Below are positions 2,151-62,405 of a stretch of DNA of 64,000 bases, one piece after another. A program made the translations under genes and the position numbers. Where the stretch lies: positions 32,001 to 96,000 of the IMG/VR virus record IMGVR_UViG_3300037231_000119; one strand, 5' to 3'. The number at the start of each line of letters is the position of its first letter. Within the stretch, counting starts at the first letter, position 1. The notes under the pieces are model-generated. The model was not told where the DNA came from. It was given only the letters and a program-made list of their open reading frames with translations, and searched no databases. This stretch comes from a virus.

Positions 2151-2234
2151 TTAAGACTCCTAGTGTTTTTTGACCCTTATGTGGGCTGATTATAAGATTG
2201 GCTGAACTCGGACAGTTATAGTAACTACTTGATT

Positions 2235-18171: not shown

Positions 18172-18582
18172 ATGCGATCACTACGGTCAAATCTAGTTCT
18201 GGTATCGGCCTACGGTTCTAAACTCTCGAATGAGCAAAATCATGCCAACCATGAGAAGGCCATTGAAATGCTTGAGAGAGACAACGTTCGATTCCAGGTA
18301 GTCAATGGAGTCTATAAGGGAGCCAAGGAGCTTGTATTCCTAATGGCTAGCACTGACACTGATACACATGACCAAAATGTGACGACCGCTTATATGTTAG
18401 GGCACTTGTTTAATCAAGAGAGTCTACTTGAAGTTCATAACGACAATACGGCGGTACTTCACTACTTGGGAGGCGAGAGCGTTAGCCTTGGGAAGTTTCA
18501 GGAAGTTAGTGAATTTGAAGCTTTGAGTCACGATTCATATACGCATGAGCCAGTATTGGATCGATATTTTGTGGTTAAGTAA
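18172..18582 (+). CDS. S-adenosylmethionine lyase (T3 SAMase-like), putative anti-restriction/anti-BREX
   Basis: VLVSAY..N..NH, GVY...E, FNQESLL, LGKFQEV parallel T3 gp0.3 motifs (VLVSAF, GCYRE, WEQDCVL, GSFQEV). Confidence 0.75.
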   Translation: MRSLRSNLVLVSAYGSKLSNEQNHANHEKAIEMLERDNVRFQVVNGVYKGAKELVFLMASTDTDTHDQNVTTAYMLGHLFNQESLLEVHNDNTAVLHYLGGESVSLGKFQEVSEFEALSHDSYTHEPVLDRYFVVK

Positions 18583-18603: not shown

Positions 18604-19584
18604 ATGAGTATTAAGGGGTTCAAAGCAATGAGTGCAGATATGACCTGCCGTGAGTTTAAATTCAAAGTAGGTAAAACCTATACTACCGATACGGTTACTA
18701 TGTGTTCTAGCGGGTTTCATTTTTGTGAGAATGCGTTTGATGTATACAATTACTATCCTAAGAGCGTCAATACGGTCGTATGTGAAATAGAAGCGTTAGG
18801 TGAAGTTCTTAAAGAGGGAGATAAAAGCGCAACTAATAAAATTAAGATCATTAGAAAATTAACAGAAACCGATTTACTTAATCTTTGGATTAAACGAACG
18901 AACTCGGGCTATGGGAACTCGGGCAATAGGAACTCGGGCGATTGGAACTCGGGCGATTGGAACTCGGGCTATGGGAACTCGGGCAATAGGAACTCGGGCG
19001 ATGGGAACTCGGGCGATTGGAACTCGGGCAATAGGAACTCGGGCAATAGGAACTCGGGCGATGGGAACTCGGGCGATTGGAACTCGGGCAATAGGAACTC
19101 GGGCTATGGGAACTCGGGCAATAGGAACTCGGGCTATGGGAACTCGGGCAATAGGAACTCGGGCGATTGGAACTCGGGCGATGGGAACTCGGGCTATTTT
19201 AATACAACTATTCCAGTTTATCTCTTCAATAAGCCATCCACTATGGTCTACTCGGAGGAATTTGAAAATCGTATTAGAGGCTTATCTGTCAAGCCTATTC
19301 TTGAATGGGTTGGAATGGACACTATGACTGAGGAAGAAAAAACGATTTACCCATCCCACAAAACTACAGGCGGATTCCTACGTAAAACAGATAGGTTCGA
19401 CTGGCGCTATCTGACCAATGAAGATAAGGAATTCATTAAGGCACTTCCAAATTTCGATGATAGCTTGTTTAAACAAATCAGTAATGGTGTCAGTCTTTCA
19501 GATAATGTGGAAGTTACTATTAATGGTAAAACTAAAACTATCTCCAAGGCTAAGGCTATTGAGATGGGGTTAATCGAAGAATAG
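18604..19584 (+). CDS. Phage protein with NSGxx pentapeptide repeats
   Basis: N-terminal GFK...CSSGFHFC..YY domain followed by 20 NSGxx repeats. Confidence 0.85.
   Translation: MSIKGFKAMSADMTCREFKFKVGKTYTTDTVTMCSSGFHFCENAFDVYNYYPKSVNTVVCEIEALGEVLKEGDKSATNKIKIIRKLTETDLLNLWIKRTNSGYGNSGNRNSGDWNSGDWNSGYGNSGNRNSGDGNSGDWNSGNRNSGNRNSGDGNSGDWNSGNRNSGYGNSGNRNSGYGNSGNRNSGDWNSGDGNSGYFNTTIPVYLFNKPSTMVYSEEFENRIRGLSVKPILEWVGMDTMTEEEKTIYPSHKTTGGFLRKTDRFDWRYLTNEDKEFIKALPNFDDSLFKQISNGVSLSDNVEVTINGKTKTISKAKAIEMGLIEE
18901..19200 (+). repeat. Tandem repeat, 20 x 15 nt
   Basis: AACTCGGGC plus AATAGG/GATTGG/TATGGG/GATGGG. Confidence 0.95.
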
Positions 19585-31987: not shown

Positions 31988-32377
31988 TTAGGTAACGGGA
32001 GGAGCCCAGGAAATCTGAATACGAGCTGGCCCACAATCACAACCACAGTTACAATTCCATGTCTCATAGCCTGGAGGCAAAGCTTCGGGGAATCCGGCTA
32101 CGAAACACGGCGCGTACGGATAGCCAGGAAAGCCACAATTGAAGGGGAAGATAGGGAAGTTGACTACATAGCCAAGAGGGGTAAAGTAGTTGGTCACATA
32201 GGTAGAGGTCAAGAAAGGGATCATGAAGGGCTCTACCTGAGTAAGGCCATTAGCAATAGCGGCGTTGATTAGGACGGTAGCAGAAGCCACAAAAGTAGCC
32301 TCAGCCGTGACCATAAGAGAGGCAACGGTGGCTTGGGAGGCGGTAAGGGCTGCGGAGGCGGTAGGGAGGGTGGGCAT
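31988..32377 (-). CDS. Late hypothetical protein, Cys/Pro-rich
   Basis: Late motif 5 nt upstream of ATG. Confidence 0.65.
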   Translation of the reverse strand: MPTLPTASAALTASQATVASLMVTAEATFVASATVLINAAIANGLTQVEPFMIPFLTSTYVTNYFTPLGYVVNFPIFPFNCGFPGYPYAPCFVAGFPEALPPGYETWNCNCGCDCGPARIQISWAPPVT

Positions 32378-41187: not shown

Positions 41188-41415
41188 TTAATTCTTTGGG
41201 GGTTTTACTGGAGCGCCTGATTGAGGGTCCTTCACTCTGCCTTCCAACATGGAGACGAACCTGATATCTTCTGGATCGTTCGGATTTACCCATTTCATTT
41301 GCGACTTACTTGATAATCCGCCCGGTGGGATAGGGGTTTTTGCAACATGGACAGTAGTATGTTTGGAGGGTAATTTAGCTGCTGAGGGTAGTCCTGCTAC
41401 CCCACCGCTTTTGGG
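41188..41415 (-). other. -1 programmed frameshift extension of the 792-aa protein
   Basis: Slippery C-CCA-AAA (41415-41409); hairpin GGGTAG-CAGGA-CTACCC 6 nt downstream; 75-codon open -1 frame. Confidence 0.7.
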
Positions 41416-43775
41416 TCACTCTGACCCTCCGCTTTCGGTCCATCTGGCGCACCGGATTGTGTAGCTTCCGCGACCGCACCCGGATCCTGAGGTGCATCTG
41501 AACTCATCTTAGGCTCGAGACCTAAGAGTTTGCACAGCTCGATCATGGCCTTAAGCATCTGGATCGTGCTTTGGTAAAGTCCGGGACTTTGATCTTTAGC
41601 CTCTTCTAGGAATGCCTTATTTGCCTTAAATCCCTGTAACGTTTGGGATACTTGATCTATAACCTGCGCCCTCTTTTGTTCCTGCGCGTGGTCATCTAAA
41701 CCACCCTGGAGAACTCCAGCCATATCTGGTTCATCCTGGCCATCTTCAGCCATCGGATCTTGTCCCGATTCTTGTCCCAATTCTCCATTTTGTCCCGATT
41801 CCTGAGCCATCTGATCCGCATCGCCCTGTGTACCTTGATAGTCTGGAGAGGCCATACGATCGATCGGACCTTCTTCTCCGCCTTGACTTCCAGGGCAATC
41901 TGGACAGTTACATTCATGGTCGCTATTCTGCATGTCCTTTTCAGCATCTGAAACGTTATTCTTTTGCTTATCGCCAAAGTTTTCGGGGACAGAGGCCCCC
42001 TCTTCCATCTCGTCGCCTTGAGGAAGTTCAGTATTGTCAATCTTTTTAGCTTCAGCCTCAGGAGTTTGGTCACCCTCTCCTGGCTTCTGATCCAATAGGT
42101 CTAAAACTTCTTCAGCCGTTTCATGTCCTTGTAGATTGGGATCTTCTTGGCCAGTTTGATCTGGCTGCTCTTCGATAGCGTCCCCATACATCTCTTGGCA
42201 CTGCGGACAGTTGTCTGGTTGCTCGGCAGACATATCTTGGACACCCAAAGCGGTCGCATCATGTTTTGGGCAATTCGGGCAGTTACAAATATGGTCTACG
42301 TCTTGTCCTTCGGGAGTCCCAGCTTGAGCTTCTCCAACGGTTTCGGATTCACAATAAGGGCAACCATCTACGCCGCCAGCCTCATCGGGAGTATCTTGGC
42401 AGTATGGGCAGTCATCCTCTTCCGAACTTTCCTGACAATATGGACAATCATCCGTATCTATCCCACCAGTATTTTGCTGGGAAGCATCGTATTCCTTACA
42501 AGCATCACAATCATGCATCCCAGCCGAACCATCCGCATTTTCTTGAGCATCCAAATCTTGGCAATAAGCACAGTCGTCCGTACGGTTATCTTCTTGATCA
42601 GGATTCTGAAAACCCTTGTCTTCTTTGTCGGCAGCTCCGTTATGGAAGCCCTCTTCATGCTTATGAAGATTATGGGTATGTTCAGACTTATACATCTCGG
42701 GCTTAGACATCCCCGCCTTGGAATCAGATCGTAGTTCTGATGCTGGATCGCTGTGTTGGTACGCAGCTCGACTATGTTGGTCAGCTATTTTAGAATGGAT
42801 ATCTCTATGTGCGGGATCCTTAGCTCTTTCTTTGCTACCGAACGCTCCTTGTTTTCCTTGATGAAAACGCCCCAGATCATTGTGAATTTTGGCCGCGTCG
42901 GCATGATCTTGCGGAGTGTATTTTAAAGTATTGGCAAACGCTTCAGATCGAAAATGAACCGGTTTCTTAGATTGGGTATGCCCCACAATATCGGAATCCT
43001 TGGGATGAACTGGTGCCGCATCCGAATCTGATTTATGAAGACCGCATGTATGTTCATACTTTACCATAGGCGCTGTAGTAGGTGCTGGGACTACGGTTAC
43101 CACGTGCCTCATTATGGCGCCATGTTTCTGATCTCTTTTATCCGCAGCACTATGTAAGCCCTTTTTACTTCCCACCGTTCCTTTATAGTGAAGAGTGCCG
43201 GTAGTGGGGCTATGAGAAGCTAAATGATATTTTTCGCCAGGCTTTAGATCTGGGGCGCCATAGAGACCGTGTTCACCTTCAGCTTTATGTAAATCGCACT
43301 TCATATTTTCGCTCTTTTCCAGATAAGCATCCGCAAGCTTCATCTCTTCTTGATTGGCAGTTTTAGCCTTAACTTTTTCGCGCATTTTATCAATGCCCTT
43401 TTCTACTTTAGGTCCATACCAAACCGTCTTATTCTTACCTGTAGCTTTGGCGTAGAGGAGACTTCTACCCGCTTCAGACAAGTCCTTACCAATACCAACT
43501 GAAATATTTAAGTCGGTGGCCTCGTAGTACTTACTTCTTAGCTCTTCCACATCTTTAGCGGCTTCAAACGGGATGCGAAAACTCCCCTCATCTCCACCAC
43601 CAGAAATTCTTTTACCACCACGCTCTGATACCCACTGATTAACGATCTCGTGACCCAAATCGATCTTGGCCGAGATATTGTGGAGAGCCTTCTCATCATT
43701 TGCAATGATGGCCTTACCGCACTGGCGACCAGCACCGTCCGCATCATAAGTAAGTCTGAGCATGGGCTTACTCAT
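41397..43775 (-). CDS. Head-module polyprotein: mCpol-like cyclase, His-rich modules, acidic CxxC repeats
   Basis: YDADGAG...GG.RISGGGDEG...ISVGIG..LSEA...L..AKATGKN; LEKSE/LHKAE/LHKSD/MYKSE motifs. Confidence 0.75.
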   Translation of the reverse strand: MSKPMLRLTYDADGAGRQCGKAIIANDEKALHNISAKIDLGHEIVNQWVSERGGKRISGGGDEGSFRIPFEAAKDVEELRSKYYEATDLNISVGIGKDLSEAGRSLLYAKATGKNKTVWYGPKVEKGIDKMREKVKAKTANQEEMKLADAYLEKSENMKCDLHKAEGEHGLYGAPDLKPGEKYHLASHSPTTGTLHYKGTVGSKKGLHSAADKRDQKHGAIMRHVVTVVPAPTTAPMVKYEHTCGLHKSDSDAAPVHPKDSDIVGHTQSKKPVHFRSEAFANTLKYTPQDHADAAKIHNDLGRFHQGKQGAFGSKERAKDPAHRDIHSKIADQHSRAAYQHSDPASELRSDSKAGMSKPEMYKSEHTHNLHKHEEGFHNGAADKEDKGFQNPDQEDNRTDDCAYCQDLDAQENADGSAGMHDCDACKEYDASQQNTGGIDTDDCPYCQESSEEDDCPYCQDTPDEAGGVDGCPYCESETVGEAQAGTPEGQDVDHICNCPNCPKHDATALGVQDMSAEQPDNCPQCQEMYGDAIEEQPDQTGQEDPNLQGHETAEEVLDLLDQKPGEGDQTPEAEAKKIDNTELPQGDEMEEGASVPENFGDKQKNNVSDAEKDMQNSDHECNCPDCPGSQGGEEGPIDRMASPDYQGTQGDADQMAQESGQNGELGQESGQDPMAEDGQDEPDMAGVLQGGLDDHAQEQKRAQVIDQVSQTLQGFKANKAFLEEAKDQSPGLYQSTIQMLKAMIELCKLLGLEPKMSSDAPQDPGAVAEATQSGAPDGPKAEGQSDPKAVG

Positions 43776-45172: not shown

Positions 45173-45215
45173 ATTTTATTCCTTAAGTACCTATATCACT
45201 ATAAGATTGGAGGGG

Positions 45216-47016: not shown

Positions 47017-48660
47017 TTATTTCTCTTTTCCGTAGGCTTCTCTGACTTTTGCAACGTGCCAGTGATTTTTGATATCCTGTTTATTTTTTAAAGCGCCTTT
47101 TGTTCCCTGAATTCCATTCAGCCACCCATAGGCTAAATTGTCTGGATTGTTACCCAATACATGCTCCATATGGGATAGGTGCCTATCAGCGATGGTGTTT
47201 TCGAGACCCTTATGGTCGTTCATATAATTATGAAGCTGTTGACCCTTAAGCGCTAAAGCCTTGCCATGTTTTGAGGCCAAATCTTTATGGCCTTTGATAG
47301 TCTCTCTAATAGTTTCTGGCATCAATCCATAGGCGCCATACGCATGCTCAGCCCCATGAATTGGTCCACCACCTGCGGCATGATTCGTGTTTTTTCCACC
47401 ACTCGACTCAACAGAGGCGATAGCCCTAAGCATCTTAGCGTGGTCATAGTTTGATTTAGGTTGGGCGTGTTGAATGCTGGCAGGAGACCGATTTCCAGCA
47501 TCTGTTTGAGGAGCAGATCCAGCTAAGGCGCCAGCCATACCAAGTGCAATACCGGCATTTTTGAGTGCGCCTTTTTCCAAAGACTCGCTTTTATCAAAAT
47601 CTGGATTGTTAAGTCTAGCTCTAGCCTCTGAAAGATAGTTCGGACTTCCAGGCTTAGATTTCATTTTATTCTTTATTGGAGCCATTCTTTCAGCTTCGAG
47701 ATGCTCTAATTGCTGTCCCGACTCTCTCTTTATATCTTTAGCATGGCTGATATTTTTTGATCTGGATTGTTGAGAAGCCATCACGGAATTAAGCTCATCA
47801 CCTGCATTACCGGCCTTCGCTTTATTGGGACTAAGAGCGGCTATGCCCATAAGAGCGCCAGCGGTTTTTTCTTTCCAGCCCTTGTGGAGTTCACATTCTC
47901 CCTTACTCACTTTCTCAGGCAACTTCTTTCCCTTGGTCGCCTCATCCCATTCATGGACACCAGCTTCACCACCTAGAGCTTTTTCTCCATTAGGGGTGTG
48001 CGCCCATCTCTCTTGTGCTAGACTTTCGTAAGGCTTGGCCAATGGCTTCTTACCGAGAACATTTTCAGCTTTAGTAACCGGCACATTCACCTTAGCCGTA
48101 AAATCCGAATGATCCGGAAACTTGGGTTCGGCAGTATCGGCTTCGTGATGGTAAGTTTTGATAGTTTTGGGGCCCTTATTGAGAACTGCATTTCCAAAAG
48201 ACAATCCGGCTTCATGGGCCGTTTTTGCACCGGAAGATTTAATTTTATCCCAAGTACCTTTATCAACACTCACATGCGGAGACCATTCAAATTTTGAAGG
48301 GTGGCCCATATGAGCAAACTTTCCATTGTGCTCCTTCATCTTATCGGCCGAGTTCCCCTTTAATTTGACGACAAATACGTCGTTCCCATTACGATCTTTA
48401 AACTGGGCAGGCTCTATTTGCGTATTTTTAGCATCAGGGGGATTTAGTGGGAGATGTTGGGCCAAATCATGAATGGAGTGAAGATGGTCCTTTTCTTTAT
48501 TGAATTCTTTCAGACTAGCGTGATATCCAATGTTATTATCGGGCCTGTGAGTTTGGCCGTTGATCTTTACGGGATAGCCAAGAAGGATTCCCTCTGAGGC
48601 TAGTTTCGCATAACCGGCAGGATCTTCTTTTTTGTGGAGGTTAGGCGCATTTTTTGACAT
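47017..48660 (-). CDS. Head-module polyprotein: 2H phosphoesterase (Acb1-like) and lytic transglycosylase
   Basis: YHASL (H47) and PHVSV (H129); MLRAIASVESSGG...AYGAYGLMPET...LAYGW. Confidence 0.75.
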   Translation of the reverse strand: MSKNAPNLHKKEDPAGYAKLASEGILLGYPVKINGQTHRPDNNIGYHASLKEFNKEKDHLHSIHDLAQHLPLNPPDAKNTQIEPAQFKDRNGNDVFVVKLKGNSADKMKEHNGKFAHMGHPSKFEWSPHVSVDKGTWDKIKSSGAKTAHEAGLSFGNAVLNKGPKTIKTYHHEADTAEPKFPDHSDFTAKVNVPVTKAENVLGKKPLAKPYESLAQERWAHTPNGEKALGGEAGVHEWDEATKGKKLPEKVSKGECELHKGWKEKTAGALMGIAALSPNKAKAGNAGDELNSVMASQQSRSKNISHAKDIKRESGQQLEHLEAERMAPIKNKMKSKPGSPNYLSEARARLNNPDFDKSESLEKGALKNAGIALGMAGALAGSAPQTDAGNRSPASIQHAQPKSNYDHAKMLRAIASVESSGGKNTNHAAGGGPIHGAEHAYGAYGLMPETIRETIKGHKDLASKHGKALALKGQQLHNYMNDHKGLENTIADRHLSHMEHVLGNNPDNLAYGWLNGIQGTKGALKNKQDIKNHWHVAKVREAYGKEK

Positions 48661-49648
48661 CTGCCCCTCCTAAGAAATCTAGGCAACGTTGAATGCAGGA
48701 TTGTTTATCTAAATCCCAGTCCACCTCTTTGATATGGAGGATTTTAATGTCCTTAGTCGCAAAATGAGCATCCTTAAGGTCGTGGTAATTATAGACGTCT
48801 TCGTCTGGCCAATGTTTACGCGACCTTTTTAGGCCCTTAAAGGAATGATGATAGGTGCCATCAAATTCTATGCCAAGTTTTAGCTCTGGAACGTAGATAT
48901 CTATATCAAAACGTTTAATATGAGGTTTCCCCTCTATGCTAACTTTAGAACGTAACGTATTAGCGGTAGGAAAAAACGCTTTGACGTTATCCGAAAGCTC
49001 TTTCTCTTTAAGGGAAATGCTTCTTGATTTTTTCATATGTGAACATACAATATCCAGTATACCCAAATTTCTCGCTGCATCCCAGGCACCCGCCCCATAT
49101 TTTTTAAATTCCCCACGACTATTGTATTTTAGAGCCTCTTGATGGATCTTTTCTACCGTATCCCATTTGACTTCCCACAGGGGGGTCATATGAACACAAA
49201 AATCTTCTATTATTCCCTGCCTGTGCATCGCGCTATAAACACCCGGATGTAAATCTCTAAGTTGCTCTTTACTATTGCAAGTAAGTGCTATGCGCTTAAG
49301 ATCTTCTAGGGAATAAGCCTCATTGCACTTTTCGCCCATAAAGGCGCAAATATCGTCAAGCCACCCCATTCTTTGAGCTTTGTCGTAAGCTCCTGCACTG
49401 CCCCTAGCAAAAGAAGTTCTATCGGCATAATTATATGCTTCTTTTTGTACTTCCTCAAAAGTCTCCCATTTAGGTTCCCATAAGACTTCCATATGGGAGC
49501 AAATCCTGTCTAAAAATTCGGGACCTTTTCGCCAAGCTGCCTTATAAGCCGCATTACTATATTTTTGAAAATCAATACGGCTAAGATATTTGAGAGCTTC
49601 CGCCCTCAATTCTTCTGGTGTCCATCTGTGCCGTTTTTTAACGCTCAT
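48641..49648 (-). CDS. Homing-endonuclease-like protein (helical repeats plus Vsr-like nuclease)
   Basis: EALKY.SR.DF repeats; DIDIYVPELKLGIEFDGTYHH. Confidence 0.85.
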   Translation of the reverse strand: MSVKKRHRWTPEELRAEALKYLSRIDFQKYSNAAYKAAWRKGPEFLDRICSHMEVLWEPKWETFEEVQKEAYNYADRTSFARGSAGAYDKAQRMGWLDDICAFMGEKCNEAYSLEDLKRIALTCNSKEQLRDLHPGVYSAMHRQGIIEDFCVHMTPLWEVKWDTVEKIHQEALKYNSRGEFKKYGAGAWDAARNLGILDIVCSHMKKSRSISLKEKELSDNVKAFFPTANTLRSKVSIEGKPHIKRFDIDIYVPELKLGIEFDGTYHHSFKGLKRSRKHWPDEDVYNYHDLKDAHFATKDIKILHIKEVDWDLDKQSCIQRCLDFLGGADVKKCA

Positions 49649-52499: not shown

Positions 52500-53006
52500 C
52501 TATCTGTTGCTTTTTCTCATCTCAATTAGAAGATTCGTTATAGCTATCATTTCAATATAAGATATGGAATTATTTTTAATTAGATTGCATGTGGAACAAC
52601 AAGGAACCACATTGTCAGCATAGTAGTCTTTACTGTTATCTTTTCTGTCTAGGCCGTGCCCTGTTTCTGGGAGTCTTCCCTTGCAGTAATGGCAGGAGTC
52701 ATCTTCCACTATGGAAATCCATTCATCCAAAGTAATGTGCCAGCTATAGCCCCTATCTTTGGCAGCTATTATACCTCTTTTGAATCTACTTTTGTTCTTT
52801 CTAGCATGCCCATACGATTTTGCTCGTCTTTCATCTCTATTCGCTAAGTAGTATTTTTTAGATTGAGCGTTCAATTCTTCCCTATTAGAGTTGTTGCGCT
52901 CTATCGTACATTTTTGACAATAAGTCTGAACACCGTCTTTTCGGGCCTTATTTTTTTGGAAATCCCCGATATCTTTTTCTAAATTGCATCCTTTACAGAT
53001 TTTCAT
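52500..53006 (-). CDS. HNH endonuclease
   Basis: CHYC...GLDRKDNSKDY..DNVVPCC.TCN..K. Confidence 0.9.
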   Translation of the reverse strand: MKICKGCNLEKDIGDFQKNKARKDGVQTYCQKCTIERNNSNREELNAQSKKYYLANRDERRAKSYGHARKNKSRFKRGIIAAKDRGYSWHITLDEWISIVEDDSCHYCKGRLPETGHGLDRKDNSKDYYADNVVPCCSTCNLIKNNSISYIEMIAITNLLIEMRKSNR

Positions 53007-53121: not shown

Positions 53122-54525
53122 TTAGGTAAACAATTGTCCTTGCAAATTCTCGACGATTGCATTTTTCCGTGGCGCCTCTACTGCGAGCGTAGTCCACCTG
53201 TAAAAAGCATTGTTAATGCTCAATTGAGAGATACCGAGCTGAAGCTTTTTAAAGCCACTCAGTTCGCCCATGTGTCCCGTATCCTTCTGAATCAGGAAAC
53301 CCGTGAGAGCGCCAGGAGCCATGTTGCCAAGGTCCGTGAACGTCGCACCACTTGGGGCCGCCGCGATATTCCCGATGAAGAGAACACCCGGAGAAACCGT
53401 AGCTGCCACACCGGCCGCCGTACGATACACACGGTAGTAGAGAGCGCCAGCAGCCGCACCGATCGTCAGAGTGACCTTGTTACCAGCGAGAGCAGGCGTA
53501 ACGGTCGAAACGGCCGAGAGAGGCCCTTCACCGTAGGCGTTAACCGCAGCAACAGCGTACGTATACGCAGCAGCCTGAAGGAGAGACCCAGCGGCCCCGC
53601 CGTCAGCAGAAGCCAACGTAGGCTGAGCAGGAGCGCCCTGAATCTGGACGTTGATCGGATTGATCTGTTTACGCAAATATTGCGACATTTCCATACTGAC
53701 GGCACCTGAGCTAGTCCACTGCGTGCGAAGATGCGCGCCAGTAGCTTCCTGAGGTGAACCAGCGAGAACGATACGTTCCTTAGCCTGGCTGATCTTGTTA
53801 TAAGCAGAGAGGCTGGAAGGATCCAACATCAGCTTGTCCGCGCGACCCATGTTAAGGGCAGAACGAACCGAGATATCTTCGATCAGGGACTGCGTAAGAG
53901 CAGCGCCACCAGCCGAGAACACAACCGTTGCGCTCGAACCGTACGAAGCGAACATCAGATCCTGTCCATTGCGCTCGAAATCCGAGGCGCGAACCTGGAG
54001 ATCCCAACCACGCATATTGGCGAGAGCAGGAACTAGGGCAGGATTGCCATCGAAGACTCCGTTGTTTGAGAAATCAGAGTTACCAGAGAACAGGTCGAAC
54101 TCGATGTCCTGAGCAAGGTTAAGGGCCGCATCCTGAGCTTGGCGCTCTTCAGCAGTCACCTTGTCAAACGTTTCAACAGCGTTCGCAACGAGCGAATGTT
54201 CGCGTGTATCGACGTAGTACGCCATTGGGACCACGAGACGAGCAGCTTGGCCAGTCTTTTTCGCGCCCAGCATACCTTCGTAAGCCGCTGATCCGCCGAA
54301 ACGGCCGACAGACAATTTACGATTGTACTGATAGAGATTCGACTTCGTATTACGAACATCGAGCATCTTCTGCAGTTTGATGGTCTCTTCGGCAGCCGTG
54401 ACATTGATCATCACTGGAGCCAGATCTTCGATTTGATAAGCAGCGCCCTGTACGAGGGTAGAAGGGGCGGCATTATATGAACCCGCTTCGAGTGCCTTCA
54501 TCAGAGTTTGGAGTTGGTCTAACAT
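53122..54525 (-). CDS. Major capsid protein (SPO1/Herelleviridae-like)
   Basis: MKALEAG...GAAYQIEDL...IEFDLFSG; strong codon bias; follows scaffold. Confidence 0.9.
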   Translation of the reverse strand: MLDQLQTLMKALEAGSYNAAPSTLVQGAAYQIEDLAPVMINVTAAEETIKLQKMLDVRNTKSNLYQYNRKLSVGRFGGSAAYEGMLGAKKTGQAARLVVPMAYYVDTREHSLVANAVETFDKVTAEERQAQDAALNLAQDIEFDLFSGNSDFSNNGVFDGNPALVPALANMRGWDLQVRASDFERNGQDLMFASYGSSATVVFSAGGAALTQSLIEDISVRSALNMGRADKLMLDPSSLSAYNKISQAKERIVLAGSPQEATGAHLRTQWTSSGAVSMEMSQYLRKQINPINVQIQGAPAQPTLASADGGAAGSLLQAAAYTYAVAAVNAYGEGPLSAVSTVTPALAGNKVTLTIGAAAGALYYRVYRTAAGVAATVSPGVLFIGNIAAAPSGATFTDLGNMAPGALTGFLIQKDTGHMGELSGFKKLQLGISQLSINNAFYRWTTLAVEAPRKNAIVENLQGQLFT

Positions 54526-56220: not shown

Positions 56221-56402
56221 TGAAATTCTCCTTGGAAATTTGTCTTTTTACGTAAAAACCATTTCAAACATTGAATATGGCGAACCCTTGGGTTTCAGCT
56301 ATTTAGATTGCCGTGTTAAGAAAAAACTCAATAAATTCAAATAGTTAACCATAAGCATTATTGGAATAAGCATGATCTATACCCTTTGCCAATCTTATTA
56401 GT

Positions 56403-56903
56403 ATGAAAACATGCACAAATCCGATATGCGATCAAATAAACCCCCAACCCTTAACGCAATTTTATAAAAAGAAGAGTGGGAGAGATGGACTAAATGGTAG
56501 GTGTGTAAAGTGTACCAATAAGCAAACAGATGCTTGGTGTGCCCGTAATACCGAAAAGGTGAAGGTTACCAAAAACAAATGGACGACCAACAATACAGAA
56601 AAAGTTAGGGAAAATGGCCAAAAATGGGATAAATTAAATCCAGGTAAAAAAGCCGCTCAAGTTCGTAAGTATCAGGCTTCTAAGCTTAATGCGACTCCCA
56701 AATGGCTTACTAAAGAACAACTTAAGGAAATGCAGGCCCTATATGTTGAAGCGGCCCTAAAAACCAGAGAAACTGGAATCCCCCATGAAGTCGATCATGA
56801 GGAGCCCCTACAGGGTAAGAATATCTGCGGATTGCACGTACCATGGAATCTGAAGGTGGTTACGAGGACCGAAAACCGTAAAAAGAGCAATACGGGTAAA
56901 TAG
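56403..56903 (+). CDS. HNH endonuclease
   Basis: ATPKWL...HEVDH..PLQGKNICGLHVPWNL...N..KSN. Confidence 0.9.
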   Translation: MKTCTNPICDQINPQPLTQFYKKKSGRDGLNGRCVKCTNKQTDAWCARNTEKVKVTKNKWTTNNTEKVRENGQKWDKLNPGKKAAQVRKYQASKLNATPKWLTKEQLKEMQALYVEAALKTRETGIPHEVDHEEPLQGKNICGLHVPWNLKVVTRTENRKKSNTGK

Positions 56904-56931
56904 TCCAATCTTATCCCTTAGGAGTGCTTAA

Positions 56932-58791
56932 ATGTCAACTTATATTTCGGGCGTAGCTAGTTGTTCCGCAATTGATACCGCTGGGGAAATTGTAGATATT
57001 AGCGGTCTCGACATAACCTCCTTAGCTCGTAGCGGTACTTGTAACTGGGAACACAAAGCCGACACCCCGGCACAAACAGTTGGCAAAATACTAAAGGCAA
57101 AAAAGATCTTTAGTGAAAAAGACTGTGAAGATTCCAATCAAAAACACTTTTGGGATAAAACCAAACTACCGTTCGTATATATAGTTGCGGAGCTTTTGGA
57201 TGATTATACGGCTAGTGCAAAAGAATGTGCTGGTCAGATGAGGTACAGTAAGGACCATCCCGAACTATCGGCAATTTTAGGATTTTCCGTTGAAGGAAGT
57301 GAAATACCCGGAACCAGGAAAAATTCCATGCTGATCACACGATCGATTGCAAGAAAGGTTACGCTTACCGTATCTCCAGCAAATAAGTTATGTATTGCTC
57401 AAATTTTCGAGAACCCAGAACAAAAATCCCAAGTCAAAGATGATTTTGAAGAATTGTTTCGTTCTGACCAAGAAGCTATCACTCTCTTCAAGTCAGGTGA
57501 AGGCGAAAAGATTTACGAATCCTATTTGGCCAAAAAAGAGCATGAGCCTAAGAAGCCGTGTAAACATAAGAAAATGAAAAAAGATGAATTTGGTTATCCA
57601 GATTCCCCTAAAACTTCAGCGCCCCCTCCAGAACCAAATAAAGCAAACGCCCAAGCTATGCAAAATGGCGCTGAATCAGGCGGTCCAAGTTTCTCTCAGG
57701 GCCTATCTAACCTGGCCAATGGCTTAATGGGTAAAAGTGAAAACTTCGGATGGTCTAAGGGTAAAGTGGATAAGGATAAAAAGGCAGTTCACTACGAACA
57801 CCCAACTCATGGCACGGTTTCCGTAATCAGACACGATAATGGCGATTTCCACGTAAAGCATCGTGGGGCTTTGGCTGGTGTTGGTGGAGTTAAGGGCTCT
57901 TTCCCTACTTCTGGAGAAGCCGGTACTCACGCTAAGAAATATATGTCTTCCTTAAGCCAGGGTAAAACTTTGGCACCACAAATGCATAATATTTCATCAA
58001 CGGACGTTGCGAGCAAAAAACATCTTAAAAAAGCCATCGATGCCGGTTCCTACAATGCCGCCCCCTCTACCCTAGCTTCCGGTGCCGCTTATCAACGCGA
58101 AAGTCTTGGTTCAAAGCCTGCAACTACTGGGGCTGAAGACCATAACTTTCAGGGGACTAAGAAGAAGGACTGGAATAAGAGATCGAAAGAAGATTACGAG
58201 AATTGGCCCCAAAAAGAGAAGTTTGAGAAGTTTATGTCTGCTAGAATGCCTCATTTGGCATTAGGCGAGATAAAAGCTCTGGGCCGGGCGATATGCTTGA
58301 AAAAGAACATCGAGGCGGAGAAAGCTCTTGGTAATTTGGTTTTGGGTAAGTCTGAAGAGGACCCCAAACTCGGCAATCATTTTCTTTTCAGTGCTGAAAA
58401 TCCAATGCATCCCCATAAAAATGAAAGCAGGATGGACCATAAACAGACCCTGGTACACTTAAAAAGTAAGGGTTTTGATGCCAATGAAGTTAAGGGGCAT
58501 TATGGCGCTCCGGAGACCTCGATCATGGTCCACAATGTTAATCCCAAACAGGCAGAGCATCTTCACGGAATAGCCTCCAAACTTGGTCAGGATAGTTCGA
58601 TCTATAGTAATAATGGCAAGCATGAGATGCGCTACCATCACGGTGAAAAGGCAGGAAAGTCCCATTTAGGTTCTGGTACCGAATTCCATAAAGAAAAGCC
58701 TAAGGATTTCTATACTACTCTACCTAATGGAAAACACTTCACTCACAATTTTGATTTTGATCAATTACATAATAGTAAAAAGAAAAAATAG
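56932..58791 (+). CDS. Prohead protease with C-terminal cargo modules including a SAM-lyase-like domain
   Basis: ISGVAS..AID..GEIVD..GLDI...NWEH...LGFSVEG...VTLT..PAN; C-terminal FSAENP..GHYG..E..LGQDS. Confidence 0.85.
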   Translation: MSTYISGVASCSAIDTAGEIVDISGLDITSLARSGTCNWEHKADTPAQTVGKILKAKKIFSEKDCEDSNQKHFWDKTKLPFVYIVAELLDDYTASAKECAGQMRYSKDHPELSAILGFSVEGSEIPGTRKNSMLITRSIARKVTLTVSPANKLCIAQIFENPEQKSQVKDDFEELFRSDQEAITLFKSGEGEKIYESYLAKKEHEPKKPCKHKKMKKDEFGYPDSPKTSAPPPEPNKANAQAMQNGAESGGPSFSQGLSNLANGLMGKSENFGWSKGKVDKDKKAVHYEHPTHGTVSVIRHDNGDFHVKHRGALAGVGGVKGSFPTSGEAGTHAKKYMSSLSQGKTLAPQMHNISSTDVASKKHLKKAIDAGSYNAAPSTLASGAAYQRESLGSKPATTGAEDHNFQGTKKKDWNKRSKEDYENWPQKEKFEKFMSARMPHLALGEIKALGRAICLKKNIEAEKALGNLVLGKSEEDPKLGNHFLFSAENPMHPHKNESRMDHKQTLVHLKSKGFDANEVKGHYGAPETSIMVHNVNPKQAEHLHGIASKLGQDSSIYSNNGKHEMRYHHGEKAGKSHLGSGTEFHKEKPKDFYTTLPNGKHFTHNFDFDQLHNSKKKK

Positions 58792-62367: not shown

Positions 62368-62405
62368 ATATTGACTCCAATCTTATTATCTGATACAACT
62401 TATAT

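Follow-up and report, generated by a model that had tools for sequence, protein, structure and literature searches.

The open reading frame (ORF) at 56932-58791 in a 64,000-nucleotide stretch of viral DNA encodes a prohead protease that carries a domain of the S-adenosylmethionine (SAM) lyase family at its C terminus. The stretch, referred to here as the window, comprises positions 32,001 to 96,000 of IMG/VR record IMGVR_UViG_3300037231_000119, a complete virus record of 162,446 bp with 43.6% G+C. The best explanation of the architecture is that a T3-type SAM lyase is borne by the protease, loaded into the capsid, cut free there and injected together with the DNA, and this explanation is given about an even chance of being correct. 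A first-pass annotation, made from the letters of the DNA and a list of its ORFs, had proposed the fusion of a SAM-lyase-like domain to the prohead protease C terminus, and the coordinates, the continuous frame, the match to Pfam family PF23780, the fold and the signature residues all agree with that proposal. The annotation had further inferred that the protease self-releases an anti-RM/BREX enzyme for co-injection with the DNA, a reading that is supported in part.

The reading frame of ORF 56932-58791 is unbroken from the protease to the cargo. The placement of the domain at 58345-58791 is correct: codon 472 starts at 58345 (GKSEED...) and the stop codon occupies 58789-58791. This leads to the question whether the fusion could be an artefact of assembly or gene calling, with the lyase in reality a separate gene. 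Such an artefact has a negligible probability and was rejected, as the frame is continuous without a stop, the junction offers no plausible start or ribosome-binding context, and the same fusion recurs in no fewer than 14 independent contigs of different origin, with 63-83% identity in the domain. A blastn search with the fusion gene against GenBank phages gave no matches.

The C-terminal domain belongs to the SAM lyase family as judged by profile, fold and signature residues. The reaction of this family is the cleavage of SAM to MTA and homoserine lactone, which the fused domain may share. PF23780 (S-AdoMet_lyase), for which the cutoff is 28 bits, matches residues 497-603 with 28.6 bits in the whole protein and with 32 bits when the domain is searched alone. 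The same family matches 34 of 51 diverse members of the domain family, the best with an E value of 6e-13, and no other Pfam family was matched; PHROGs gave no match to the domain. The window also encodes a stand-alone SAM lyase, beginning at 18172, and the first-pass annotation had pointed to a motif order common to the two. A direct BLASTP comparison yielded E 0.022, below significance, and profiles were required to relate them. An hhalign comparison of the domain profile, built from 51 homologues, with the family of the stand-alone lyase gave a probability of 90.7% and E 1.2e-6 over 111 columns. In this alignment FLFSA is paired with VLVSA, His with His, G-H-Y with G-V-Y, E528 with E53 and Q-D-S with Q-E-S, so the motifs that had been noted by eye are placed together. 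At the level of sequence, the similarity of the fused domain to the stand-alone lyase is real but remote.

An AF2 model of the C-terminal domain (pLDDT 88.8) was compared with known structures, a check against solved SAM lyases that had been suggested beforehand, and T3 SAMase was found to be closest. Foldseek placed it at ranks 1 and 2 (probability 1.0, TM-score 0.56-0.62), and VIA-align gave Z scores of 10.8 and 9.8 over 118-121 residues, followed by a generic ferredoxin fold (Z 6.7), Svi3-3 (6ZM9, Z 6.2) and PII proteins (Z 4-5.6). The length of the modeled domain and its best matches suggest the T3 type. The link of the model to T3 SAMase is structural only, and searches of the PDB sequences by phmmer and hmmsearch, using the domain or its profile, retrieved no lyases. 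The oligomeric state of SAM lyases varies, Svi3-3 being trimeric, its active sites located at the interfaces, and the T3 enzyme a monomeric barrel or dimer (bioRxiv 10.1101/2023.02.27.530186). A homotrimer prediction of the domain with SAM gave a score of 0.00 and a mark of 0.42, which speaks neither for nor against oligomerization. Prediction as a trimer, as envisaged in the first-pass annotation, is in any case irrelevant to family membership, because the nearest structural relative, T3 SAMase, is monomeric, unlike the Svi3-3-type trimer.

T3 SAMase is a monomer built as a barrel of nine strands with two outer helices and has the active-site residues E68, Q94 and D95 (bioRxiv 10.1101/2023.02.27.530186), and the conserved set of Svi3-3 consists of G56, Y58, E69 and Q104-E105 (PMC7877911). 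Mutation of the T3 signature residues G55-C-Y57, E68 and Q94-D95 reduces activity (bioRxiv 10.1101/2023.02.27.530186; PMC7877911). The T3 sequence presents the same order of motifs as the fused domain (VLVSAF, His, G55-C-Y57, E68, Q94-D95), and the distance from Glu to Gln is 25 in the fused domain versus 26 in T3. In 51 homologues with 33-80% identity, residues G522, Y524, E528, Q553, D554 and S555 are near-invariant, and G522-H-Y524 and E528 are aligned to G46-V-Y48 and E53 of the stand-alone lyase. The subfamily is rich in histidine, which accounts for 17 of the 144 residues in the stretch 476-619.

The N-terminal domain is an assemblin-type prohead protease. It had been called a prohead protease in the first-pass annotation, and the matches to the Mx1 protease, to phrog_1028 and to the assemblin fold agree on this identity. 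In tblastn searches, residues 2-180 showed 34% identity to the "putative prohead protease" of Myxococcus phage Mx1 (E 1e-24), and the proteases of the Listeria phage P100 group were matched at about E 5e-4. The match to phrog_1028, head maturation protease, has an E value of 1.7e-6. When the AF2 model of the domain (pLDDT 85) was submitted to Foldseek, the top 30 matches were herpesvirus assemblins (probability 0.99-1.0, E about 2e-3, TM-score 0.36-0.45), and T4 gp21 (5jbl) appeared at rank 40. Residues H41, S119 and E121 are invariant in 36 protease homologues, and H41 and S119 would constitute the catalytic pair.

The genes for the major capsid protein (MCP) and for an acidic scaffold-like protein lie within 2.5 kb of the protease gene on the opposite strand, with an HNH gene between. 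The scaffold-like protein is of low complexity and matches no family; it probably serves as the scaffold and would be broken down by the protease. The protease protein itself contains a near-copy of the N-terminal arm of the MCP, detected by BLASTP at E 9e-11. Its counterpart is located at 54423-54510 (minus strand), corresponding to MCP residues 6-33, and the two share the pattern AGSYNAAPSTL.xGAAYQxE. An MCP-N-arm-like motif is also present in the Mx1 protease. To go by the sequences, the copy is possibly a docking element or mimic, or else a shared processing element.

Variation in the C-terminal slot was assessed in relatives of the protease, as the first-pass annotation had advised. A protein search gave 186 matches, 120 of which were examined, and 116 of these had a complete core. 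Four elements are common to the relatives: the protease, a variable linker, a small beta domain and a conserved domain of about 125 residues containing the MCP N-terminus near-copy. The slot behind this last domain indeed varies, being empty in 70 of the 116 relatives, occupied by a SAM-lyase-like module in 14 and by other cargo in 32. The 70 proteins with an empty slot end within a few Lys-rich residues of the conserved domain. In the extended relatives the conserved domain is followed by a junction of the form [hydrophobic]-x-K-[S/A/T]-E and then by one to three modules. The 14 carriers of the lyase module require 12 changes on the tree of the protease domain, at least 7 of which are forced by supported branches (shuffled mean 13.4), i.e. 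the slot states are scattered across the tree. The protease nearest to that of the window, in P0045, is 77% identical and has a different cargo.

The other cargo types include a very common helical module of about 90 residues, GNAT acetyltransferases and several further modules. Relatives P0003, P0009 and P0013 have two or three cargo modules in series; the fusion protein of the window combines one recognizable effector with the protease. A Pfam search of ten relatives with other cargo yielded almost nothing, a single weak GNAT match in P0059. Among the relatives, no extension of the protease is more frequent than the helical module (…KELDEKSLKDIQKETAEKWADRAE…); it is C-terminal in P0019, P0021, P0023, P0042, P0054 and P0066 and often follows the lyase module, as in P0003, P0004, P0006, P0009 and P0012. 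It matches no family and is absent from the fusion protein of the window. In phage Mx1, the annotated prohead protease (L008, OR576727.2, 5959-9678) has 1239 residues and comprises the protease, the MCP-N-arm-like motif and an unrelated extension of about 900 residues, in which no Pfam match and no SAM-lyase module were found. Among cultured systems, only Mx1 would permit cargo borne by the protease to be tested.

The distribution of the slot states also bears on the proposal that the domain is a catalytically dead internal protein derived from a SAM lyase, serving as a basic, His-rich filler, a DNA-binding protein or an assembly factor. Its high content of His and Lys with an isoelectric point (pI) of 9.2, its borderline Pfam score and the conservation of residues beyond the lyase signature would be compatible with such a role. 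However, G-x-Y, E and Q-D-S are near-invariant in 51 sequences down to 33% identity, which is unexpected for a filler, and with no cargo in 70 of 116 relatives the slot is dispensable and not an essential structural part. A dead filler is therefore regarded as very doubtful.

In the first-pass annotation the similarity to the lyase follows LGKSEED and the protease releases the enzyme itself. The motif at the LGKSE junction was found to behave statistically like a cleavage site, both in its enrichment in the head gene cluster and at domain edges. For [LIMFV]-x-K-[SAT]-E, 33 copies were counted in the encoded proteome, where 12 would be expected. Of these copies, 21 fall into the head cluster at 37-59 kb, which holds 14% of the proteome residues (binomial P 5e-11), with seven in the scaffold-like protein and two to three each in four to five other proteins. 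Plain "KSE" showed mild enrichment only over the whole proteome (25 versus 16 expected). Judged from these counts, the junction signal resides in the fuller motif and its location and not in plain "KSE". The domain edges were analyzed in 164 homologous SAM-lyase-like domains from a 50%-identity representative library, with a span of 25 residues. K-[SAT]-E lay within 25 residues of the upstream domain edge in 37 of 76 cases (49%); for the downstream edge the figure was 44 of 123 (36%), compared with a background of 7.3% of random windows. Inside the domain it was found in only 20 of 164, and the cargo domain of the fusion ORF contains none.

T4-type prohead proteases as a rule cut after Glu. 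Because of its enrichment in the head cluster and at domain edges and the Glu cutting of T4/phiKZ-type proteases, [hydrophobic]-x-K-[S/A/T]-E is read as the cleavage site of the protease, which probably cuts after the Glu. The SPN3US protease gp245 cuts after A-x-E and cleaves itself (PMC10052503). Read in this manner, the junction motif predicts the specificity of the protease in testable form and would make it possible to list, from sequence alone, which cargo the capsids of an entire uncultured phage lineage contain.

The module is not confined to the protease. A search with the domain profile returned 681 cluster representatives, and in the best 149 of the 681 the module takes an N-terminal position in 84 cases, an internal one in 31 and a C-terminal one in 21, while 13 are stand-alone. 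It heads polyproteins of 500-2500 residues with SLT, GNAT and kinase-like modules that occupy a syntenic virion-gene slot in phages of about 155 kb. P0124 (514 residues) combines the lyase module and K-S-E junctions with a hydrophobic segment and an SLT transglycosylase, the latter with a Pfam match to SLT, and in P0128 (2036 residues) the lyase module is followed by several GNAT domains; sister polyproteins contain up to several GNAT and kinase-like modules. Both P0124 and P0128 are located on phage contigs of about 35-155 kb, in a gene slot syntenic with ORF 47017-48660 of the window. The product of the latter is 48% identical to P0124 over the SLT part, and its orthologues in relatives have an N-terminal SAM-lyase-like module or up to 2000 residues of GNAT modules. 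A transglycosylase and hydrophobic segments in a protein processed by the protease are what would be expected of an ejection protein. The fusion of the lyase module to such proteins would support its delivery with the DNA. In the same head cluster, a 792-residue protein (41397-43775, minus strand) carries an mCpol (minimal CRISPR polymerase, PF18182, E 8e-11) domain at its N terminus, followed by the junction motifs LEKSE and LHKAE, and is by its sequence a candidate for a further capsid cargo enzyme.

The stand-alone lyase of the phage lies within a run of small ORFs on the same strand, which looks like an early region. The two lyase-type proteins differ in charge, the fused module being basic (pI 9.2) and the stand-alone enzyme acidic (pI 5.4). 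The internal proteins of T4 are basic in character, and the basic pI of the fused module fits with them. The gene adjoining the stand-alone lyase (18604-19584, plus strand) encodes 326 residues with a long run of short repeats of the GNSGN/DWNSG type, and a shadow ORF derived from the repeats is present in another frame of 18604-19584.

An alternative use of the module would be in the producing cell only. In that case the module, released or still attached, would act late, lowering SAM during progeny DNA synthesis or exploiting late co-expression, and the fragment would be lost or degraded at maturation. The placement of the gene behind the CCAATCTTAT motif, a candidate late-promoter element, and the expulsion of protease fragments from T4 heads are in line with this, but a soluble late enzyme has no need of a carrier inside the capsid. 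In addition, the same junction motif repeatedly joins the module to other head-internal polyproteins, some with a transglycosylase and ejection-type hydrophobic segments, the module is basic, unlike the stand-alone enzyme, and the turnover of cargo in the slot is as expected of counter-defence payloads. Action restricted to the producing cell is thus considered improbable.

If the lyase is delivered with the DNA, as preferred here, the gene would code for a protease-scaffold protein like herpes pUL26 or P2 gpO, the C terminus of which has been extended by a cargo module. The fusion protein would be made late and would co-assemble into the procapsid via the protease and the scaffold-like part, which includes the MCP N-arm copy. 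The activated protease would then cut after the Glu of [hydrophobic]-x-K-[S/A/T]-E, its targets being the scaffold-like protein, further internal head proteins and the protease protein itself. Cleavage at L-G-K-S-E (471-475) would free a basic, His-rich T3-type lyase domain of 16.4 kDa inside the capsid, and the freed lyase would remain together with the DNA and accompany it into the next host. In that cell the enzyme would break down SAM, or a signal derived from SAM (such as SAM-AMP), ahead of phage gene expression, and as a result SAM-dependent restriction, BREX or CRISPR signaling would be blunted. The acidic stand-alone lyase (18172) would take over once the early genes are on. The target could be either restriction-modification and BREX systems via SAM or type III CRISPR signaling via SAM-AMP.

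Several points weigh against this scheme. The Pfam score of the fused domain barely exceeds the cutoff, some close homologues such as P0003 miss E 0.01 with PF23780, and an hhalign comparison of the domain profile with the T3 SAMase sequence gave no match. The nearest isolate, Mx1 (MCP identity 46.7%), is without the lyase module. The placement of the exact scissile bond within the junction motif is by analogy only. In T4 heads, little is kept of the fragments that derive from the protease itself, and retention of a protease-borne fragment is therefore not automatic. The turnover of Svi3-3 is about 10 per second (PMC7877911), and at a comparable rate the few tens to few hundred copies that a capsid could hold would deplete the cellular SAM pool only slowly, copy number and depletion rate both being our estimates. 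Finally, near-invariant His residues at domain positions H12, H93 and H134 are lacking in the stand-alone lyase, and therefore the chemistry or substrate of the fused domain may differ.

The last two points lead to the question whether, with fold and delivery as proposed, the enzyme acts instead on a signal derived from SAM, for example the SAM-AMP made by type III CRISPR Cas10, so that the module would be an injected anti-CRISPR. SAM-AMP lyases, too, are members of the PII-like SAM-lyase superfamily and have only the Glu and Gln in common with SAM lyases, and a phage-encoded example, the candidate AcrIIIB4, cleaves SAM-AMP and not SAM (PMC12255297). The extra conserved residues of the fused subfamily, absent from the stand-alone lyase, would agree with such a specialization. 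With a canonical stand-alone lyase already present, a second copy of other specificity would make sense, and a few injected molecules could plausibly suppress a low-abundance signal more easily than the SAM pool. On the other hand, the best structural matches are to T3 SAMase and not to a SAM-AMP lyase, and G-x-Y, the Tyr of which contacts the sulfonium in Svi3-3, is retained. A SAM-AMP-specific enzyme, although a serious alternative, thus appears unlikely.

A broader proposal, put forward tentatively and held to be possible rather than probable, is that Mx1-like large phages use the prohead protease-scaffold protein, along with a small number of further proteins from inside the head, as interchangeable "cargo racks" for counter-defence enzymes. 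Payloads such as a SAM/SAM-AMP lyase, GNAT acetyltransferases or an mCpol-like cyclase would be plugged in behind a K-[S/A/T]-E junction, loaded stoichiometrically, released and injected. If this is true, such racks would represent a general, recombination-driven pre-loading of virions with anti-immunity enzymes, of which the SAM lyase would be the commonest recognizable payload. A pre-packaged SAM (or SAM-AMP) lyase would act ahead of phage transcription, and the interval open to SAM-dependent type I/III restriction, BREX and CRISPR signaling would be closed. The architecture would amount to a simple and evolvable loading rule, in which an enzyme is attached to the maturation protease beyond a site that this protease itself would cut. 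It would be relevant to the diversification of virion proteomes and offer a natural precedent for cargo-loading designs.

The features of the window that are discussed here are compiled in Table 1. Exact copies of the CCAATCTTAT motif occur just upstream of structural genes at 56389-56398, 56905-56914, 45201-45210 (minus strand), 62377-62386 and 2192-2201 (minus strand), and 14 matches with at most one mismatch were counted versus 7.5 expected; from this distribution the motif is a candidate element of late promoters. Among the head genes there are three HNH / endonuclease VII-like genes (56403-56903, plus strand; 52500-53006 and 48641-49648, both minus strand), one of them directly 5' of the protease gene. 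All three probably encode homing endonucleases, and genes of this type may help to shuffle adjoining modules.

Table 1. Coordinates of the fusion gene, its parts and related genes in the window.
Feature	Position	Strand	Remarks
Stand-alone SAM lyase	18172..18582	+	136 residues, pI 5.4; PF23780 at 66.7 bits
Virion polyprotein, 547 residues	47017..48660	-	C-terminal SLT-like transglycosylase, hydrophobic segment, two junction motifs
Major capsid protein	53122..54525	-	phrog_752, E 2e-38; 46.7% identity to Mx1 MCP
Acidic scaffold-like protein, 301 residues	54557..55462	-	adjoins MCP gene; 7 copies of [LIMFV]-x-K-[SAT]-E
CCAATCTTAT motif	56905..56914	+	18 nt 5' of the fusion ORF start codon; putative late-promoter element
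Fusion ORF	56932..58791	+	619 residues, 68 kDa: protease, linker, small beta domain, scaffold-like domain, junction, SAM-lyase-like cargo
Prohead (assemblin-type) serine protease domain	56932..57471	+	residues 1-180
Internal junction M-G-K-S-E	57727..57741	+	residues 266-270; putative protease cleavage site at the boundary of linker and small beta domain
Conserved scaffold-like domain "mid3"	57964..58341	+	residues 345-470; C-terminal end of the protein in most relatives
Near-copy of MCP N-terminus in protease protein	58018..58101	+	residues 363-390; KKAIDAGSYNAAPSTLASGAAYQRESL versus MCP KALEAGSYNAAPSTLVQGAAYQIEDL
Junction L-G-K-S-E	58342..58356	+	residues 471-475; putative self-cleavage site, would release cargo
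SAM-lyase-like cargo domain	58357..58788	+	residues 476-619 (about 144), 16.4 kDa, pI 9.2, 11.8% His
G522-H523-Y524 ... E528	58495..58515	+	equivalents of T3 SAMase G55-x-Y57/E68 and Svi3-3 G56-x-Y58/E69 (substrate binding)
Q553-D554-S555	58588..58596	+	equivalents of T3 Q94-D95 and Svi3-3 Q104-E105-S106

Early SAM lyases with anti-restriction or anti-BREX function, injected capsid proteins that are processed by a protease (T4 internal proteins, Alt, SPN3US E proteins, P1 Dar) and protease-scaffold fusions (herpes pUL26, P2 gpO) are already known. Among the lyases, T3 SAMase (gp0.3; PDB 7OCK, 8BB1) is the best structural match to the fused domain (Z 10.8, 118 aligned residues), with a two-helix beta-barrel topology and the same order of a VLVSAF-like strand, His, G-x-Y, Glu and Gln-Asp. 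It differs in that it is a free, first-expressed early protein whose N-terminal tail binds host MetK, whereas the domain described here is the C-terminal module of a late capsid protease. The spacing from Tyr to Glu is 4 in the fused domain versus 11 in T3, and since the two are not similar at the level of sequence, the positions of the MetK-contact residues cannot be transferred to the fused domain. Svi3-3 and the environmental phage SAM lyases (6ZM9; PF23780) belong to the same Pfam family and have conserved Gly, Tyr, Glu and Gln-Glu/Asp-Ser (PMC7877911). However, Svi3-3 is a trimer with intersubunit active sites and reaches a Z score of only 6.2, and the fused domain is closer to the longer, monomeric T3 type.

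The internal proteins and Alt of T4 have a capsid-targeting sequence, are cleaved by gp21 and are injected, and IPI* blocks GmrSD. These proteins and the ejection proteins of SPN3US/phiKZ are loaded into the prohead, cut after Glu, kept with the DNA and injected (PMC9026906, PMC10052503), steps that the fused domain would follow in its packaging and injection. The T4 and SPN3US cargos are encoded by separate genes and have short N-terminal targeting propeptides, whereas here a C-terminal cargo is attached to the protease-scaffold protein as its carrier, and the motif is K-[SAT]-E as opposed to L/I-x-E or A-x-E. Herpesvirus pUL26 (assemblin-linker-scaffold) and P2 gpO likewise have an N-terminal assemblin-fold protease fused to a capsid-docking scaffold-like region, with self-cleavage in the linker, but in neither is an enzyme carried in addition to the scaffold part.

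Polyvalent proteins (Iyer et al. 2017, PMC5512222) and P1 Dar are comparable in that counter-defence modules of variable content are combined in one virion-associated polypeptide and co-delivered with the DNA. Their carriers are different, namely MuF, portal, DarB, N4-vRNAP and similar proteins with metallopeptidase or other processing domains (PMC5512222). The polyvalent-protein survey does not mention a SAM lyase module or a prohead-protease carrier ("SAMase" occurs 0 times and "prohead" once; PMC5512222). In the open-access papers that were searched, no virion-packaged SAM lyase and no prohead protease carrying an effector were found. To our knowledge, SAM lyases are known only as early-expressed soluble proteins. 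Compared with these open-access papers, a SAM lyase as virion cargo and a prohead protease as the carrier of an effector would thus be new, and the main interest would lie in the general principle of the cargo rack and in its ready testability.

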